Source of the DNA: a virus | Taxonomy: Duplodnaviria; Caudoviricetes | IMG/VR virus record: IMGVR_UViG_3300036987_000310 | Coordinates: 64,001 to 128,000 of that record | Reading direction: 5' to 3' (one strand) | Length of the DNA stretch: 64,000 bases | Shown here: positions 44,408 to 56,649 of the stretch, piece after piece | Layout: each line of letters begins with the position of its first letter | Numbering within the stretch: the first letter of the stretch is position 1 | Position numbers and translations under genes: made by a program | Notes under the pieces: model-generated | The model's input: the letters and a program-made list of their open reading frames with translations, nothing else | Told to the model about the DNA's origin: nothing | Database searches by the model: none

Positions 44408-44656
44408 TCAGATGTCCTCCCTTGGTAGGACAGCCAAGGTGACGTAGACGTCCGGGTGTTCGGTCGTGTCCTCGGGAGCATCAGACACCCGGACATGCCT
44501 GTTGTCGATCACCCAACAGCCCTTGATGCTCGGCAGAACAACACGGTCCCCAGGGTGCAAGGCGAGAGCCACTTGTGCATTCATCTCCGTTCTGCCGATA
44601 GTATCTCCATCCAGAAGAGCCCTTCGCAATTCAACACTCGCACGCATTGGCTTCAT
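44408..44656 (-). CDS. Hypothetical protein
   Basis: 82 aa, ATGA overlap with the deaminase gene. Confidence 0.45.
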   Translation of the reverse strand: MKPMRASVELRRALLDGDTIGRTEMNAQVALALHPGDRVVLPSIKGCWVIDNRHVRVSDAPEDTTEHPDVYVTLAVLPREDI

Positions 44657-45138
44657 GTCGACCCATTGTTTCGCATGTTGGTTTCGACCACTTCCTTGAC
44701 ACTGAAGATCTCAGGGCGGGGCTCAACCCGTCTAAAGTCTATGTCGCATTTGGAAATCAAATCCGGATCGAGAGGGATGCGGTATTGCTCATCAAACACA
44801 ATGGAGCGCACGCCAGAATTTATGAGCATCTTGAAACAGTTATAGCAAGGCGACAACGTCACATATGCCGTCGCCCCGTCAATGCAGGTTCCATGCTTCG
44901 CTGCTTGAGCCACAGCGTTAACTTCTGCGTGAATAGTTCTTATACACCCTCCGTCAGGGCCGATTTCACACCCGACGTCAGTGCAATGTGGCTGTCCGCG
45001 TATGGACCCGCCATAACCGGTCGACAAGATTGCTCTGTCGCGAACTATCACACATCCAACTTGTTTTCTGTTGCAGGTTGACCGCTCAGCGACTTCACGA
45101 GCTATCGACAGGAAATACTCGTCCCAGCTTTTTCGCAT
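44653..45138 (-). CDS. dCMP deaminase
   Basis: WDEYFLSIA..VAERSTC.RKQVGCVIV, STGYGG, HAEVNA, SPCYNC. Confidence 0.92.
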   Translation of the reverse strand: MRKSWDEYFLSIAREVAERSTCNRKQVGCVIVRDRAILSTGYGGSIRGQPHCTDVGCEIGPDGGCIRTIHAEVNAVAQAAKHGTCIDGATAYVTLSPCYNCFKMLINSGVRSIVFDEQYRIPLDPDLISKCDIDFRRVEPRPEIFSVKEVVETNMRNNGST

Positions 45139-45172
45139 GAGACGAATTACACTCCTGCAGTGTCAGCATTTG

Positions 45173-45299
45173 TGGCGGGTGAAGGAATCGAACCTTCCTG
45201 GCGTGTGGGCACAAACGGCGTCTCCCTTTCGGGAGAGAGTGGAAAATGCCGGATTGTCTTCCTTTTGGTAGAAGCGGGATCCCAGATCCCTAACCCGCC
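45173..45299 (-). ncRNA. tRNA-like RNA 1 with module inserted in variable region (anticodon arm ambiguous)
   Basis: Acceptor GGCGGGT/ACCCGCC; D hairpin GGGATC-TGG-GATCCC; T arm GAAGG-TTCGATT-CCTTC; insert GGCAT..CCACTC-TCTCCC(GAAA)GGGAGA..GTGCC-CACACG. Confidence 0.75.
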
Positions 45300-45305
45300 T
45301 AATTG

Positions 45306-45434
45306 AAAACGCTCGAGTGTCGATGCCGGTTTTGGTGCACGAGGCAGGACTTGAACCTGCAACTTCCTGTTTCGTAGACAGACGCTCTACCTTTGAGCAA
45401 CTTGCGCTTGTTGGAACCGATGATTGAGCGTTTT
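45306..45434 (-). ncRNA. Module wrapped around tRNA-Arg(ACG)
   Basis: Terminal 9-bp stem AAAACGCTC/GAGCGTTTT; CGGTT/AACCG inner stem; CCAACAAG before and ACACTC after the tRNA. Confidence 0.7.
45333..45407 (-). tRNA. tRNA-Arg(ACG)
   Basis: GCGCAAG TT GCTC AAAGGTA GAGC G TCTGT CT-ACG-AA ACAGG AAGTT GCAGG TTCAAGT CCTGC CTCGTGC A CCA. Confidence 0.9.
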
Positions 45435-45435
45435 C

Positions 45436-45572
45436 GGAGCGGGACCCGGGAGTCGAACCCGGAAACTTGTGAGCAAGATTTGCGGCTTCCTTGCGAAAGC
45501 GAGGGGGCTTGCTGGTTGAGCATTGGCTCCACTGTGGAAAAGTGGTGAGGAACCGATCCTCTGTAGTCCCGC
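45436..45572 (-). ncRNA. tRNA-Gly(TCC)-like RNA 2 with ~65-nt variable-loop module
   Basis: Acceptor GCGGGAC/GTCCCGC + U discriminator (Gly-like); anticodon arm CCACT-TTTCCAC-AGTGG; insert AGCAAG-CCCCCTC-GCTTTC(GCAA)GGAAGC..CTTGCT-CACAAG; T arm CCGGG-TTCGACT-CCCGG. Confidence 0.82.
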
Positions 45573-45580
45573 GAAAGTTT

Positions 45581-45707
45581 GGACGTTCGAGTGGCGACGC
45601 TGATTTTTGGCTTGCAAAGCGGGACTTGAACCCACTACACCCAGCTTTTAAGGCTGATGCTCTACCCAATGAGCTATTTGCTTGTTAGAGCCGCTGTTTG
45701 AACGTCC
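45581..45707 (-). ncRNA. Module wrapped around a tRNA-like core with UAA anticodon
   Basis: Terminal 8-bp stem GGACGTTC/GAACGTCC; CTAACAAGC before and CCACTC after the core. Confidence 0.72.
45608..45683 (-). tRNA. Atypical tRNA, anticodon TAA (Leu) on a short-variable-loop body with 5-bp acceptor
   Basis: AAGCAAA TA GCTC ATTGGGTA GAGC A TCAGC CT-TAA-AA GCTGG GTGTA GTGGG TTCAAGT CCCGC TTTGCAA G CCA; pairs 1 and 2 of the acceptor are A-A mismatches. Confidence 0.65.
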
Positions 45708-45844
45708 TGGTGCAGGGCGAAGGAGTCGAACCTTCTTAGCTTGTGAGCACTTCGAATGCTCCTGGTGAGGGAGCGAGTGGAAACGCTGGAGACTTTTGTC
45801 GTCGTGTCCAAATCACGATGGGTGACCGTCACCCTGTGCCCTGC
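45708..45844 (-). ncRNA. tRNA(TTG, Gln)-like RNA 3 with variable-loop module
   Basis: Acceptor GCAGGGC/GCCCTGC-A-CCA; D hairpin GGGTGA-CGG-TCACCC; anticodon arm TCGTG-ATTTGGA-CACGA; insert CCACTC-GCTCC..GGAGC..GTGCT-CACAAG. Confidence 0.82.
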
Positions 45845-45852
45845 ATATTAAC

Positions 45853-46012
45853 CGCGTCCGAGTGGCAAATCTGTTTTACGCTTTTGACGATTTTCCTGTC
45901 GTTGCCTTTACCAGTTTGGCTACTCCCCCTAGTTTTTCCGTGGTGGGGGAGGCGGGAATCGAACCCGCATTGTGCTTTCGCACTTGCTTGTTAGATCAAC
46001 CGTATGGACGCG
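45853..46012 (-). ncRNA. Circularly permuted tRNA mimic with terminal module (YrlA/Y-RNA-like topology)
   Basis: 5'-CGCGTCC..CTAACAAGC, GTGC(GAAA)GCAC, T arm GCGGG-TTCGATT-CCCGC, CTCCCCC-ACCA, 11-nt linker, GGGGGAG, D arm GCC-AAACTGGTAA-AGGC, ..CCACTC-GGACGCG-3'. Confidence 0.78.
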
Positions 46013-46014
46013 AT

Positions 46015-46143
46015 TGGCGCCGGACCTTGGATTCGAACCAAGTTGCTTGTGAGCAGGACTTGAAGCTCCCTTGCGGGGGCGAGTTGGCCAGCTGGGCTTA
46101 GATCAGCTTAAGAGGCTGGTGGGGACCATCCCCAGTGTCCGGC
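46015..46143 (-). ncRNA. tRNA-Lys(CTT)-like RNA 5 with variable-loop module
   Basis: Acceptor GCCGGAC/GTCCGGC-G-CCA; D hairpin GGGGA-TGG-TCCCC; anticodon CAGC-CTCTTAA-GCTG; insert CAACTC-GCCCCC(GCAA)GGGAGC..CTGCT-CACAAG; T arm CTTGG-TTCGAAT-CCAAG. Confidence 0.82.
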
Positions 46144-46144
46144 A

Positions 46145-46221
46145 TGGTAACGGGGGCAGGATTTGAACCTGCGACCTTGAGGTTATGGGCCTCACGAGCT
46201 ACCAGACTGCTCTACCCCGCA
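46145..46221 (-). tRNA. tRNA-Met(CAT), initiator-like
   Basis: TGCGGGG..CCCCGTT-A-CCA with 1:72 mismatch; D stem GAGC/GCTC; anticodon TGAGG-CC-CAT-AA-CCTCA (C33, only two G-C pairs at the loop-proximal end). Confidence 0.9.
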
Positions 46222-46254
46222 TCGATGACGACATGAACTTTCAAAGAACGAGAA

Positions 46255-46390
46255 TGGGGGAGGGCGAAGGAGTCGAACCTTCTATGCTTGTTAGAATCGC
46301 TTGATGCTTTCGCACGGAAAGCGAGGGGCGAATCTGGAACGCAGTTGCGTCGGATTTACCGTCCGATTGGGCGCCGTGCCCAAGCCCTCC
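46255..46390 (-). ncRNA. tRNA-Tyr(GTA)-like RNA 6 with variable-loop module
   Basis: Acceptor GGAGGGC/GCCCTCC-C-CCA; anticodon TCGGA-CGGTAAA-TCCGA; insert GATTCGC-CCCTC-GCTTTC..GAAAGC-ATCAA-GCGATTC-TAACAAGC; T arm GAAGG-TTCGACT-CCTTC. Confidence 0.82.
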
Positions 46391-46398
46391 AAAACAAA

Positions 46399-46481
46399 AC
46401 GCTCGAGGTGAGATGCTTGGATTGACCCGCGCGCTTGGCGGGTCGAGCCTTCCAGCTTGTCAGCATCTCTGGATGAACGCT
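46399..46481 (-). ncRNA. Stand-alone module RNA (no tRNA parts)
   Basis: GCGTTC/GAGCGT outer stem; AGATGCT/AGCATCT inner stem; GACAAG, CACCTC; apical hairpin GACCCGC-CAAGC-GCGGGTC. Confidence 0.6.
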
Positions 46482-46484
46482 CAC

Positions 46485-46736
46485 TCATATTTTACATTTG
46501 AGACCACTGTCTGTCAATATCTGGCAAACATCTTCAACAAATCGACTACACGGCGTCAAAGCCACGGGCCCTGACACGATTTCAACGCTGCCGTCCGAGT
46601 GAACGGTCACATCCTCTAGATAACCTGGCAGTTTTTCCCACTTTTCACATCGAAGAGCGTCTCTCAAGCTGTCAGAACACTCCCAATCGCGTATTTGACT
46701 GTTGAGTGCCAAAATGACGAAAAGCACAACTTTCAT
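46485..46736 (-). CDS. Small hypothetical protein (possible signal peptide)
   Basis: MKVVLFVILAL...; ATGA-coupled. Confidence 0.45.
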   Translation of the reverse strand: MKVVLFVILALNSQIRDWECSDSLRDALRCEKWEKLPGYLEDVTVHSDGSVEIVSGPVALTPCSRFVEDVCQILTDSGLKCKI

Positions 46737-54334: not shown

Positions 54335-54667
54335 TCACAACCTGTGACCGAATGTTTTTTCCGTCATTAAATTTGTTACCAGCGCAGCATTGCAGTCTTC
54401 GGGCGTTCCAGAGTTTTCAAGGTCCCCGCGTTCCGGGGTTTTGCATACGTGGTTGCCGGTGCGACTGCAGATGGTCCACGTTTCGCTACCGCATACTGAG
54501 CACTGCCACAACTTCGTGTCGTTATGCAAAACTTTGACGAAACGCCAATCGTGTTTTGTTTTGATTTCTTCGTAAGAAATGGGAACGACGACCTCTTGAG
54601 CCTCTCCGTCCTGTTCAAAGTTCAGGAGAGCATCATATCTGTTCAAGAGGTCGTCGTGTTTGGTCAT
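54335..54667 (-). CDS. Zn-ribbon protein
   Basis: WQCSVCG...ICSRTGNHVC...DCNAALVTNLMTE; ATGA overlap with the vWA gene stop. Confidence 0.55.
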   Translation of the reverse strand: MTKHDDLLNRYDALLNFEQDGEAQEVVVPISYEEIKTKHDWRFVKVLHNDTKLWQCSVCGSETWTICSRTGNHVCKTPERGDLENSGTPEDCNAALVTNLMTEKTFGHRL

Positions 54668-56550
54668 GCGGCCCAAGTGGGTTTGCAGAGAAGATCTTGC
54701 TTCAATATGGTATCAACGAGCGTGACGCGCGGAACCGCGACAGCCCGAGCCGTCGCGCCGACTGGAGTTGCTGCGACGAGCGCACGAATCGTACGAGGAA
54801 TCGCGTACGGATCTGCGAATGTTGCTTCGTCAATCATGAAGCATGGAATCCCGAGTCGGGCCGCGGTGTCGCGAACTGCGGACCCATACCCTCCTAAGTT
54901 GACGACTCCGTACATCATGCCTCCTCCAACCTTCACAAAGCCGAAAGCCATGGGGCGAAGTTCGGACGTGTTGACGTCATTCTCAAACGACGACGCTTGT
55001 TCATCTCCAACAAAGATGAACAAGCTGTCTTCGTCGTCGCCAGGCTTGTGGGCCTTCAAGGCGCGGATCCCGGCTCCATAGTCGGTTCCGCCTCCAGCGC
55101 GAATGCCCTTGAAGGCGTTCTCCACTCCAGCTGCAGAGGGGTGGCGGATCTGAAGCTCGCGCCCCTGCGTGTTGAAAATGGACACGTGCACTTTGTCCGG
55201 CGGGAACCCCTGAAGGAATTTTGCGACGTGAGATTTGGCAGCCTCAATCGCATTTTCCATCGACCCAGAGACGTCCACCATGAAGTACACGCGCATGCCC
55301 TTCATAGTTTCTTCGACCGCCTTTTGCAGAGCCCCGTCGGCTGCTTCTTGCAGCTTTTCCTGAGTCTCCTTAGACTTGACGCGGTTGGCGATGTTGGCCG
55401 CCCGCATGTCTTCAGCGTTTTTGACAGCTTTGTTCCACCTGTCTTTGACGTCTTGGACCTCTAGCAGCCCAAGCTCCTCGAGAGTCGGCGTGTAGATGAT
55501 CAAGTCCTTGTCGGACAGAGACTTGGCTTCAATTGCTGCGGCCATGACGGCGCGCGTGACCCCGACCTCTTTCGGAAGAAGTCCGACGACCCGCTTGAAA
55601 TTCGGCTTTTCACGAACGATCTTTTCGCAGATCTGTTCTTCCGTCATTCCTTCCCAAGTTTCGGCTGCAGCCATTTCCTGACCGATTGCGAGCTGGCGCC
55701 TGCCGTCTTTTGCCTGCGCCTGCTTCCAGCGCAGAATCTCAAAGAATTTCGTCGTTTCAGGCTTATATCCGACGCAACGCGAAAGCTCCATGACAGTGGA
55801 TCGGAAGCCTGCTTTCACGAGGCCTTCGAGAAGCTTCGTGTTCTGCTCTCGATGTCTCAGCCACTTCTCCACGGCCTTGTCCCATCGGCCGTAAAATGGC
55901 CGACGAGCTGACCTCCCAAATCCAAGCTCGCGATTGACAGCCGCCACCCCTGGAAGGGAAAGCAGATCGTGGACGCGCAAGAGAAGCTTCGGATTGAAGT
56001 CCTTTCCGTCCTTGCGAGAAAGAAGAAGCATGGCCTCGCCAACGTCACGATAGTCTTCATCGTAAAATGCGACTTTTCCGCCGTCGACAACCGAGTCCCC
56101 CTTGCGGGACTGGCACAGCATGAACGCAGCCAGAACAACTTTCAAGTCGCGATGCTCCTGACCGAAAGCATACGACGCCCACCGAGCTGCGAATTCGTTG
56201 TCGAGCTTCCAGACTTCGGCGACTTGCGTGTACATCCAAACTGCCACTTCCGGAAACAGGCCGGCCGGCCTATACTCCCCAACGATGTTCGCGCCTTCTT
56301 TCACTTTCCCATCATCTTGAAGAACGCCTAGACGAGTGCGCACAGACTTCTTTCCCTGCTTGGAAAGCTTGTACACAATTTTTTGCTTCGGATCGCCTTC
56401 TTCTTTGTGGGTGACAGGTTCCCATCTGACGCCGACGTTGAAACGGTTATCGGCGACTACGATGCCAGGGCGGTTGTGGACCGCGTGGTCCGTGTAGCCG
56501 AGAAGCGTTTGAATAATTCTCTCTGCCGGTCCTAGATTTTCTTTGTCCAT
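54664..56550 (-). CDS. Ro60/TROVE-like protein: helical N-terminal region + C-terminal vWA domain
   Basis: MIDAS VDVSGSM...GGTDY...VGDE; about 400-aa basic helical N-terminal region as in the TROVE+vWA architecture; lies between rtcB and the Y-like RNA array. The vWA call is firm; TROVE is inferred. Confidence 0.65.
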   Translation of the reverse strand: MDKENLGPAERIIQTLLGYTDHAVHNRPGIVVADNRFNVGVRWEPVTHKEEGDPKQKIVYKLSKQGKKSVRTRLGVLQDDGKVKEGANIVGEYRPAGLFPEVAVWMYTQVAEVWKLDNEFAARWASYAFGQEHRDLKVVLAAFMLCQSRKGDSVVDGGKVAFYDEDYRDVGEAMLLLSRKDGKDFNPKLLLRVHDLLSLPGVAAVNRELGFGRSARRPFYGRWDKAVEKWLRHREQNTKLLEGLVKAGFRSTVMELSRCVGYKPETTKFFEILRWKQAQAKDGRRQLAIGQEMAAAETWEGMTEEQICEKIVREKPNFKRVVGLLPKEVGVTRAVMAAAIEAKSLSDKDLIIYTPTLEELGLLEVQDVKDRWNKAVKNAEDMRAANIANRVKSKETQEKLQEAADGALQKAVEETMKGMRVYFMVDVSGSMENAIEAAKSHVAKFLQGFPPDKVHVSIFNTQGRELQIRHPSAAGVENAFKGIRAGGGTDYGAGIRALKAHKPGDDEDSLFIFVGDEQASSFENDVNTSELRPMAFGFVKVGGGMMYGVVNLGGYGSAVRDTAARLGIPCFMIDEATFADPYAIPRTIRALVAATPVGATARAVAVPRVTLVDTILKQDLLCKPTWAA

Positions 56551-56566: not shown

Positions 56567-56583
56567 GCCCGCGCTGGGCGGGC
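56567..56583 (-). promoter_or_regulatory. Hairpin in 5' leader of the vWA/Ro-like gene
   Basis: GACTC-GCCCGC-CCAGC-GCGGGC, just before the SD GGGAG. Confidence 0.55.
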
Positions 56584-56649
56584 GAGTCATGCCGGGTTTA
56601 CACTCGGCAGGTTTGAATTTCCGCTAAACGTTTTTTGTCAAAGATTTGC

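Follow-up and report, generated by a model that had tools for sequence, protein, structure and literature searches.

Why does a phage enclose two complete transfer RNA (tRNA) genes within perfectly paired flanking stems, and are the enclosed RNAs still tRNAs in any working sense? This question is raised by a DNA stretch of 64,000 nucleotides (hereafter, the window), which corresponds to positions 64001-128000 of IMG/VR record IMGVR_UViG_3300036987_000310, a complete phage genome of 376,674 bp with direct terminal repeats. An earlier note on this stretch pointed out two such enclosed tRNAs, with anticodons ACG and UAA, and proposed either that their release from the precursor is a regulated step or that the unprocessed form works as a Y-RNA-like tether. 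We found that the flanking stems belong to a bipartite structure, here called the handle, which is conserved and covaries in related phages and is linked to a gene for a putative Ro60-like protein, and that the enclosed bodies carry non-canonical tRNA features. Our interpretation, in which our confidence is about evenly balanced, is that these clamped tRNAs serve as Y-RNA-like RNAs of a ribonucleoprotein, each headed by a whole tRNA, that the handle binds the Ro60-like protein, and that decoding is not their primary role.

Both units are encoded on the minus strand and share one layout, which from 5' to 3' consists of an outer stem strand (S1), an internal loop of five by five nucleotides with CACUC on its 3' side, an inner stem strand (S2), the joint UC(N)ACAA, the tRNA, an A-rich joint, the second strand of S2 (S2'), CACUC, and the second strand of S1 (S1'). 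In the handle, the loop strand A(A/U)NCA stands opposite CACUC. The unit with anticodon ACG spans 45305-45435. Its S1 5' strand, GAAAACGCUC (45426-45435), pairs over 10 bp with GAGCGUUUUC (45314-45305), directly 5' of which lies the conserved loop strand CACUC (45315-45319). Its S2 5' strand UCGGU (45416-45420) lies between the loop strand AAUCA (45421-45425) and UCCAACAA (45408-45415) and pairs with AUCGA (45320-45324). In the tRNA-shaped body of this unit (45333-45407), the acceptor stem measures 7 bp and includes one A-C mismatch, position 73 is A, position 20 is U, and CCA is encoded. The unit with anticodon UAA spans 45581-45707. Its S1 5' strand, GGACGUUC (45700-45707), directly follows the CCA (45710-45708) of an upstream giant tRNA-like RNA and pairs over 8 bp with GAACGUCC (45588-45581), and its S2 5' strand GCGGC (45690-45694) pairs with GUCGC (45594-45598); the loop strands between these helices are AAACA (45695-45699) and CACUC (45589-45593). 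The body of the UAA unit (45608-45683) is of class-I size and has an acceptor stem of 5 bp with A1-A72 and A2-A71 unpaired, G73, and an encoded CCA. S2 thus measures 5 bp in both units. These elements were read directly from the sequence, and S1, the loop and S2 were all recovered in both units in the minimum free energy (MFE) fold of RNAfold, with z-scores of -3.2 and -2.9; S1 and S2 are also covarying helices, as described below. Both bodies were called as tRNAs by ARAGORN and by Rfam (61 and 52.5 bits, above the Rfam tRNA threshold).

The earlier note was exact in reporting an 8-bp inverted repeat around the UAA body (45581-45588 / 45700-45707) and a 9-bp one around the ACG body (45306-45314 / 45426-45434), the latter of which extends to 10 bp (45305-45314 / 45426-45435), and it accurately described whole tRNAs set inside a shared module; it missed the inner helix S2. 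The ACAAG said to abut the tRNA 5' end is present in both units, but ACAAGC in fact overlaps the tRNA: it lies at 45411-45406 in the ACG unit, where its G is tRNA position 1, and at 45685-45680 in the UAA unit, where it overlaps tRNA positions 1-4. The (C/A)CACTC placed right after the CCA is found elsewhere, since CACUC comes 13 nt later in the ACG unit and 14 nt later in the UAA unit, immediately next to the 3' stem strand. The joints between S2 and the tRNA are unpaired, with 6-8 nt on the 5' side (UCCAACAA or UCUAAC) and an A-rich 8-9 nt after the CCA on the 3' side. Because these single-stranded joints separate the acceptor stem from S2, the tRNA ends are topologically enclosed but not hidden in a helix; the suggestion that the precursor conceals both ends was overstated, and access of RNase P is not obviously blocked.

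When only Watson-Crick pairs within 32-nt flanks were counted, the flank stems of the two units (10 and 8 bp) were the longest among the 39 tRNAs of the genome, and none of the others exceeded 6 bp. A flank stem of at least 8 bp occurred in 1.9% of 908 tRNAs from the retrieved loci, mostly in homologues of the clamped unit. An unconstrained search for leader-trailer stems that allowed G-U pairs was uninformative, with 7-8 bp being frequent by chance, and was replaced by position-anchored and Watson-Crick-only tests; hence, the weight of the flank-stem evidence rests on position and conservation.

In the window, the upstream junctions read ...A-CCA|GGACGUUC and ...U-CC|GAAAACGCUC, and in 22 of 27 distinct units, S1 starts where the upstream giant tRNA-like RNA ends or 1-3 nt later; the next giant tRNA-like RNA begins 5-8 nt past S1'. 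Routine end-processing of the neighbours would therefore free the clamped unit as a separate RNA, its termini paired and its 3' tail short, as in a Y RNA. Each gene would yield an RNA of ~130 nt in which the leader at the 5' end and the trailer at the 3' end form the bipartite handle, with the tRNA-shaped body hanging from S2 by its two unpaired joints, 5' UC(N)ACAA and 3' A-rich.

Relatives were gathered by a pattern scan of IMG/VR and by scripts, and the same arrangement was found in many large phage contigs. Clamped units are present in 18/18 related jumbo-phage records. A covariance model of the unit (R1) gave full-length matches of 70-113 bits in all 18 of these records, compared with at most 58 bits for ordinary tRNAs, and in the genome studied here only the two clamped units reached such scores (112 bits for UAA; 103 bits, full length, for ACG). 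In a plain MAFFT alignment of 21 units, RNAalifold found S1, S2 and the D, anticodon and T arms. Double-sided changes were present in 6/6 S1 pairs and 7/7 S2 pairs of this alignment, none of 500 shuffles reached any of the five observed measures, and sliding the partner columns by 1-3 positions lowered pairing from 90% to 29-46%. A model-fitted alignment of the 27 distinct units gave the same covariation, although such alignments lean to the model. S1 pairing was part of sequence selection; S2 was never used for selection, and its covariation is therefore an independent test. Candidates picked by the unpaired motifs alone were bimodal, with an S1 of at least 7 bp directly after CUC in 45% of them, compared with 4% when trailers were swapped. 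The invariant unpaired nucleotides are ACA-GC and CUC, the latter in 21/21 units. The earlier note named a lack of conserved flanking stems in relatives as part of what would refute its proposal; the stems proved to be both conserved and covarying in every related record. Among the DNA contigs of four runs, a relative with 97% identity came from a landfill metagenome; this single contig of depth 5, which is weak evidence, has S1 and S2 unchanged, a CCU for the CCA of the ACG unit (window position 45333, T on the plus strand) and one A fewer in the 3' joint. Inverted repeats of the type of miniature inverted-repeat transposable elements were considered and ruled out, because S1 covaries from genome to genome and a single genome contains two S1 stems of unlike sequence.

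The enclosed bodies themselves are tRNAs partly in form and probably not in function. In every unit, the acceptor-type stem begins exactly at the G following ACA(A/C), and its length across the family is 7 bp (the ACG unit), 6, 5 (the UAA unit), 3, or, in five relatives, 2-4 bp, with the handle intact whatever the length of the acceptor stem. The anticodons vary widely (UAA, ACG, CAU, GAC, CGC, UGG, CGA, UGA, GGA, UCC and more) on a single body type of class-I size, and the bodies form one paralogous family, with a mean mutual identity of 0.66 versus 0.565 to the ordinary tRNAs of the phage, regardless of anticodon. tRNA-Ser and tRNA-Leu normally bear a long variable arm, and yet Ser and Leu anticodons were found on class-I-size clamped bodies. 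Arginine identity of the E. coli type depends on A20, the main element for arginyl-tRNA synthetase (ArgRS), together with C35; leucine identity of the same type involves A73 and, in most bacteria, the class-II long variable arm. The ACG body has U20 and so lacks the arginine element A20, which all four ordinary tRNA-Arg of the phage carry, and the UAA body, with G73 and a variable loop of 5 nt, has neither A73 nor a long arm. Unclamped ordinary tRNAs with anticodons ACG and UAA are also encoded in the genome.

These features bear directly on the possibility that the units are genuine tRNA precursors, in which the clamp would order or gate RNase P cleavage and 3'-end processing, for example by keeping a reserve pool until some factor opens it, and from which a working tRNA would emerge. 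The tRNA(ACG), with its 7-bp acceptor stem, G1-C72, A73, encoded CCA, and unpaired joints on both sides, is what such a precursor might look like; both bodies clear the Rfam tRNA threshold by a good margin, the CCA lies at the canonical distance in several relatives, and the units share their array with a plain tRNA-Met. However, 37 of the 39 tRNAs of the genome need no such clamp, and many members of the family, with acceptor stems of only 2-5 bp, are unable to mature into tRNAs and still keep the handle. Class-I bodies with Ser or Leu anticodons, the U20 of the ACG body, the G73 and two A-A mismatches of the UAA body, and the ordinary tRNAs duplicating both anticodons likewise speak against a working tRNA product, as does, more weakly, the CCU of the landfill contig. 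The handle is furthermore found inside the giant tRNA-like RNAs, where no role as a flank is possible. We consider the precursor explanation unlikely, while giving it more credit than the remaining alternatives. Of the two functions suggested previously, the Y-like tether is thus the better fit to the comparative data, because the family loses the acceptor stem, carries impossible combinations of identity features and duplicates ordinary anticodons, and because the handle travels with the Ro60-like gene; regulated release is less favored and is kept alive by the 7-bp acceptor stem, A73 and encoded CCA of tRNA(ACG).

The same module recurs in other topologies within the array, and its order is the same in the clamped and giant forms. 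The cores of the five giant tRNA-like (M-type) RNAs all fold, in MFE predictions, into S2, internal loop and S1 hairpin, three of them with a GNRA loop, and this handle hairpin is followed by single-stranded U(C/A)ACAAGC and then the T-arm. One circular order is common to all forms: (Y)CA, S2', C(A/C)(A/C)CUC, S1...S1', A-N3-4, S2, U(C/A)ACAAGC. The clamped units leave S1 open and hold the tRNA between ACAA on one side and (Y)CA on the other; in the giant tRNA-like RNAs, a loop caps S1, which is only 5-6 bp long, and the module is inserted after the anticodon arm and before the variable loop, at the position of a variable arm. An open-ended handle also flanks a permuted YrlA-like RNA of the same array. 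These sister RNAs share with the clamped units the S2/internal loop/S1 module and its unpaired motifs, and likewise lie downstream of the Ro60-like gene; the giant tRNA-like RNAs differ from the clamped units in topology only: their handle lies within the tRNA, whereas that of the clamped units lies outside and clasps both ends.

Such reuse could also be explained if the handle were an endonuclease signal, analogous to the archaeal bulge-helix-bulge, whose cutting frees the tRNAs, excises the handle from the giant tRNA-like RNAs and lets the permuted RNA circularize, with the ligase RtcB joining the ends. A single rule, cutting after ACAA and 5' of S2', would cover all topologies, excision would leave the giant tRNA-like RNAs with a normal variable loop of 4-5 nt, and an RtcB gene is located 14 kb upstream of the array. 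The handle, however, has a symmetric 5x5 internal loop and no bulge-helix-bulge geometry, no candidate splicing endonuclease was present among the neighboring genes scanned, and the products from members with acceptor stems of 2-3 bp would be useless. Full-length RtcB occurs in only 1/5 near-complete handle-bearing relatives. Among phages that have both the handle and the Ro60-like gene, one (G001) has a 106-aa C-terminal piece, two (G003 and G012) have distantly related proteins, and in one that is 94% complete (G002) none was found. RtcB-dependent excision is weakened by this lack of conservation with the element and by the missing bulge-helix-bulge geometry, and we regard it as very unlikely.

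RNase III is often guided to its target by pairing of the leader and trailer of a stable RNA, and the array appears to be one transcription unit that needs cutting; the flanking stems may thus be general processing or stability elements, acting as an RNase III-type site or protecting the ends from exonucleases, with no dedicated protein partner. The duplex is short for RNase III, however, with 13-15 bp split by a 5x5 loop and an S1 of 5-6 bp in the hairpin version, and does not provide the stem of about two helical turns of mostly continuous duplex that marks a processing stem for this enzyme. The invariant unpaired ACA-GC and CUC, together with a copy of the motif in the leader of the Ro60-like gene, point instead to sequence-specific recognition. 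A purely general element therefore seems to us highly improbable.

The candidate partner of the handle is a 628-aa protein with a von Willebrand factor A (vWA) domain, encoded at 54664-56550 on the minus strand, 9 kb upstream of the array and on the same strand. Pfam recognized only the vWA domain in it. A moderate AlphaFold model built from ten homologues (predicted local distance difference test score, pLDDT, 72; predicted template modeling score, pTM, 0.45) was compared with known structures by Foldseek, and the ten best matches were all Ro60 structures (phiLo, Deinococcus Rsr, Xenopus and human), with more than 500 aligned columns and E-values of ~1e-6, whereas vWA-only proteins ranked after Ro60 with ~200 columns. 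These data suggest, as far as a predicted model allows, a Ro60-like architecture. Homologues with 51-72% identity were found in 10/10 tested records with clamped tRNAs, always on the same strand and 2.5-9 kb upstream of the array, even on a 5.5-kb fragment. In the model, residues ~29-94 form an N-terminal six-stranded beta domain; to our knowledge, no such domain is present in solved Ro60 structures, which consist of a helical HEAT-repeat ring and a vWA domain.

The leader of the vWA gene contains what appears to be half of a handle, ACUC followed by a 6-bp hairpin (56567-56587, minus strand), 3 nt before the Shine-Dalgarno sequence. N-CUC and a hairpin occupy the same leader site in homologues from five relatives (G003, G004, G007, G008 and G001), and the hairpin of G001 shares a GCAA loop and a third-position mismatch with the module hairpins of that phage. 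In total, 6 of 11 genomes, including this one, have the leader half-handle, two further cases are doubtful, and three have no clear one. The presence of a half-handle in its own leader would fit an RNA-binding protein that regulates its own synthesis.

Taken together, we propose that the Ro60-like vWA protein most likely binds the handle, and that the tRNA body, with its anticodon arm free, may be presented as a mimic, a bait or a tether. RNase P may still cut the ACG unit, in which case the leader would probably remain paired to the trailer, as the halves of Mycobacterium smegmatis YrlA stay together (PMC4201824). Several findings weigh against this proposal. As for the RNA, the CCA is retained at or near its canonical place in 6-9 of the 27 units, as read from the alignment, which is far above chance, and a free or recognizable 3' end may therefore matter in some members; the ACG unit looks, on paper, like a good RNase P substrate. 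The CGAA motif of bacterial Ro60 binding is absent from the handle, and CGAA in the leader of 1/27 units is out of register; the Rfam YrlA model scores only 16-25 bits on the clamped units, below its gathering threshold of 69. As for the protein, Pfam gave no TROVE match by sequence and phmmer found no match among PDB sequences, so that the link to Ro60 depends on fold comparison only, where the template modeling scores (TM-scores) to Ro60 are low (~0.2) and the pTM of the model is mediocre. Finally, the co-occurrence of gene and handle in 10/10 records is not independent evidence, because all the records come from one phage clade.

A more specific function can be imagined for the Y-RNA-like ribonucleoprotein, albeit doubtfully. 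One handle is attached in three orientations, at the acceptor ends, at the variable arm and on the anticodon side, and a Ro60-like ring might use the resulting heads to capture or sequester host factors that attack tRNAs in the course of infection, or to hand them over to nucleases or repair enzymes. The targets could be, for example, anticodon nucleases or enzymes that modify acceptor ends, and the clamped tRNAs would then serve as bait with a free anticodon arm, unusable for translation. If true, this would constitute an RNA-decoy arm of phage counter-defense based on the Ro/Y-RNA principle.

The array that contains both clamped units is ~1.3 kb long, runs on the minus strand from ~46470 to 45170, and consists of small RNAs without reading frames. 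Its order is stand-alone handle, giant tRNA-like M1, plain tRNA-Met, M3', permuted YrlA-like RNA (45852-46012, minus strand), M2, clamped UAA unit, M4, clamped ACG unit and M5. Directly upstream lies a strong sigma-70-like promoter (TTGACA/17 nt/TAAAAT, 46489-46517, minus strand; 11/12 matches), and no terminator-like site was found on the minus strand between this promoter and the deaminase gene (44653-45138) downstream of the array. The possibility that this deaminase is a TadA that modifies A34 in the ACG loop was considered and ruled out, because the protein is a ComEB-like deoxycytidine monophosphate (dCMP) deaminase (144 bits versus 30 for TadA). The stand-alone handle at the head of the array (46395-46469, minus strand) consists of a 7-bp S2, AGAUGCU/AGCAUCU, around CUC and a 7-bp hairpin, with ACAAGC in a loop. 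It is followed by CACCUC and GAGCGUUUU, which repeats the sequence of the 3' S1 strand found 1 kb downstream in the ACG unit; within one transcript, the 5' S1 strand of that unit could therefore pair with either copy. The plain tRNA-Met(CAU) (46145-46221, minus strand) lies inside the array without any handle, with 1 nt between its CCA and the 5' end of the next giant tRNA-like RNA. The giant tRNA-like RNAs (45170-46390, minus strand) have, by eye, the anticodon-type loops GUA, CUU, UUG, UCC and CAA, of which those other than GUA duplicate ordinary tRNAs of the genome; ARAGORN called no tRNA-Tyr or tRNA-Trp genome-wide. Outside the window and distant from the main tRNA region, ARAGORN called a 91-nt tRNA with anticodon UUA, which would read the UAA stop codon (G000:C1:336141-336231, plus strand).

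The source is an uncultured jumbo phage (~377 kb) known from metagenomes only. Its DNA is present in sequencing runs from groundwater, coal and soil, and no RNA datasets were among the public sequencing runs listed as containing it. A blastn search of INPHARED for close relatives returned generic tRNA-Met matches only.

tRNA finders label such genes as tRNA-Arg or tRNA-Leu, which is probably incorrect, and annotations of this kind should be read with caution. The present system, which is compact in having one protein, one handle and several heads, could reveal the purpose of the tRNA part of Y RNAs, and could show whether the "extra tRNAs" of phages sometimes serve as parts of ribonucleoproteins or as decoys rather than as a supply for translation. 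Y RNAs with a tRNA mimic were recognized in 2014 and are known solely as permuted partial tRNA domains. Here, a single covarying handle joins complete tRNA bodies at different points, beside a very divergent Ro60-like gene with a half-handle in its leader.

Among known systems, permuted and split tRNA genes, as in Cyanidioschyzon merolae and Archaea, are processed at bulge-helix-bulge motifs. The clamped units resemble them in the pairing of leader and trailer around tRNA parts and in the RtcB-type ligase of the genome, and differ from them in having no bulge-helix-bulge, no splicing endonuclease among the neighboring genes scanned, and no RtcB conserved together with the element. Ordinary tRNA precursors and the RNase III stems of rRNA operons likewise pair the leader and trailer of a stable RNA in a polycistronic transcript; the bipartite helix of the clamped units, in contrast, covaries, keeps invariant loop nucleotides in distant relatives, and is reused in other RNAs, and a classical RNase III site would need a longer and more continuous duplex than theirs.

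The closest comparison is with the YrlA-type bacterial Y RNAs that accompany Ro60/Rsr (RF02553; Chen et al. 2014, PMC4201824) and with Yrl1/Yrl2 and phiRo60 of the Thermus phage phiLo (PMC12135203). In M. smegmatis, YrlA is cut by RNase P and gains CCA, and both halves stay with Rsr in the ribonucleoprotein (PMC4201824). In Rfam searches, only tRNA was matched at the gathering score, and at the E-value level YrlA, permuted transfer-messenger RNA (tmRNA) and beta-tmRNA matched only the permuted neighbor or chance overlaps. A whole tRNA clasped by a Y-like handle appears to be undescribed, with no such case in the literature that we searched on YrlA, phage and tRNA and on Ro60, phage and Y RNA. 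The bacterial Ro60-binding motif GNCGAAN0-1G, conserved on the 5' strand of the Y RNA stem (PMC4201824, PMC12135203), is lacking in the clamped-unit handle, which has invariant nucleotides of its own, CACUC and U(C/A)ACAAGC, and the phage vWA protein, judging from its model, is far more divergent than the Ro60 partners of YrlA and has an extra N-terminal beta domain. The head differs as well: that of YrlA is a permuted D/T/acceptor domain joined via the position of the anticodon stem, whereas that of the clamped units is a complete, unpermuted tRNA joined via its acceptor ends, with the anticodon arm free. Nevertheless, the clamped units share with YrlA the pairing of 5' and 3' ends as stem, internal loop and stem (here S1, the 5x5 loop and S2) and a tRNA-like domain with T-arm and D-arm (here a full cloverleaf). 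Their neighboring gene for the putative Ro60-like vWA protein may correspond to the Ro60-type ring/vWA genes near which YrlA-type RNAs are encoded, often in phage tRNA regions.

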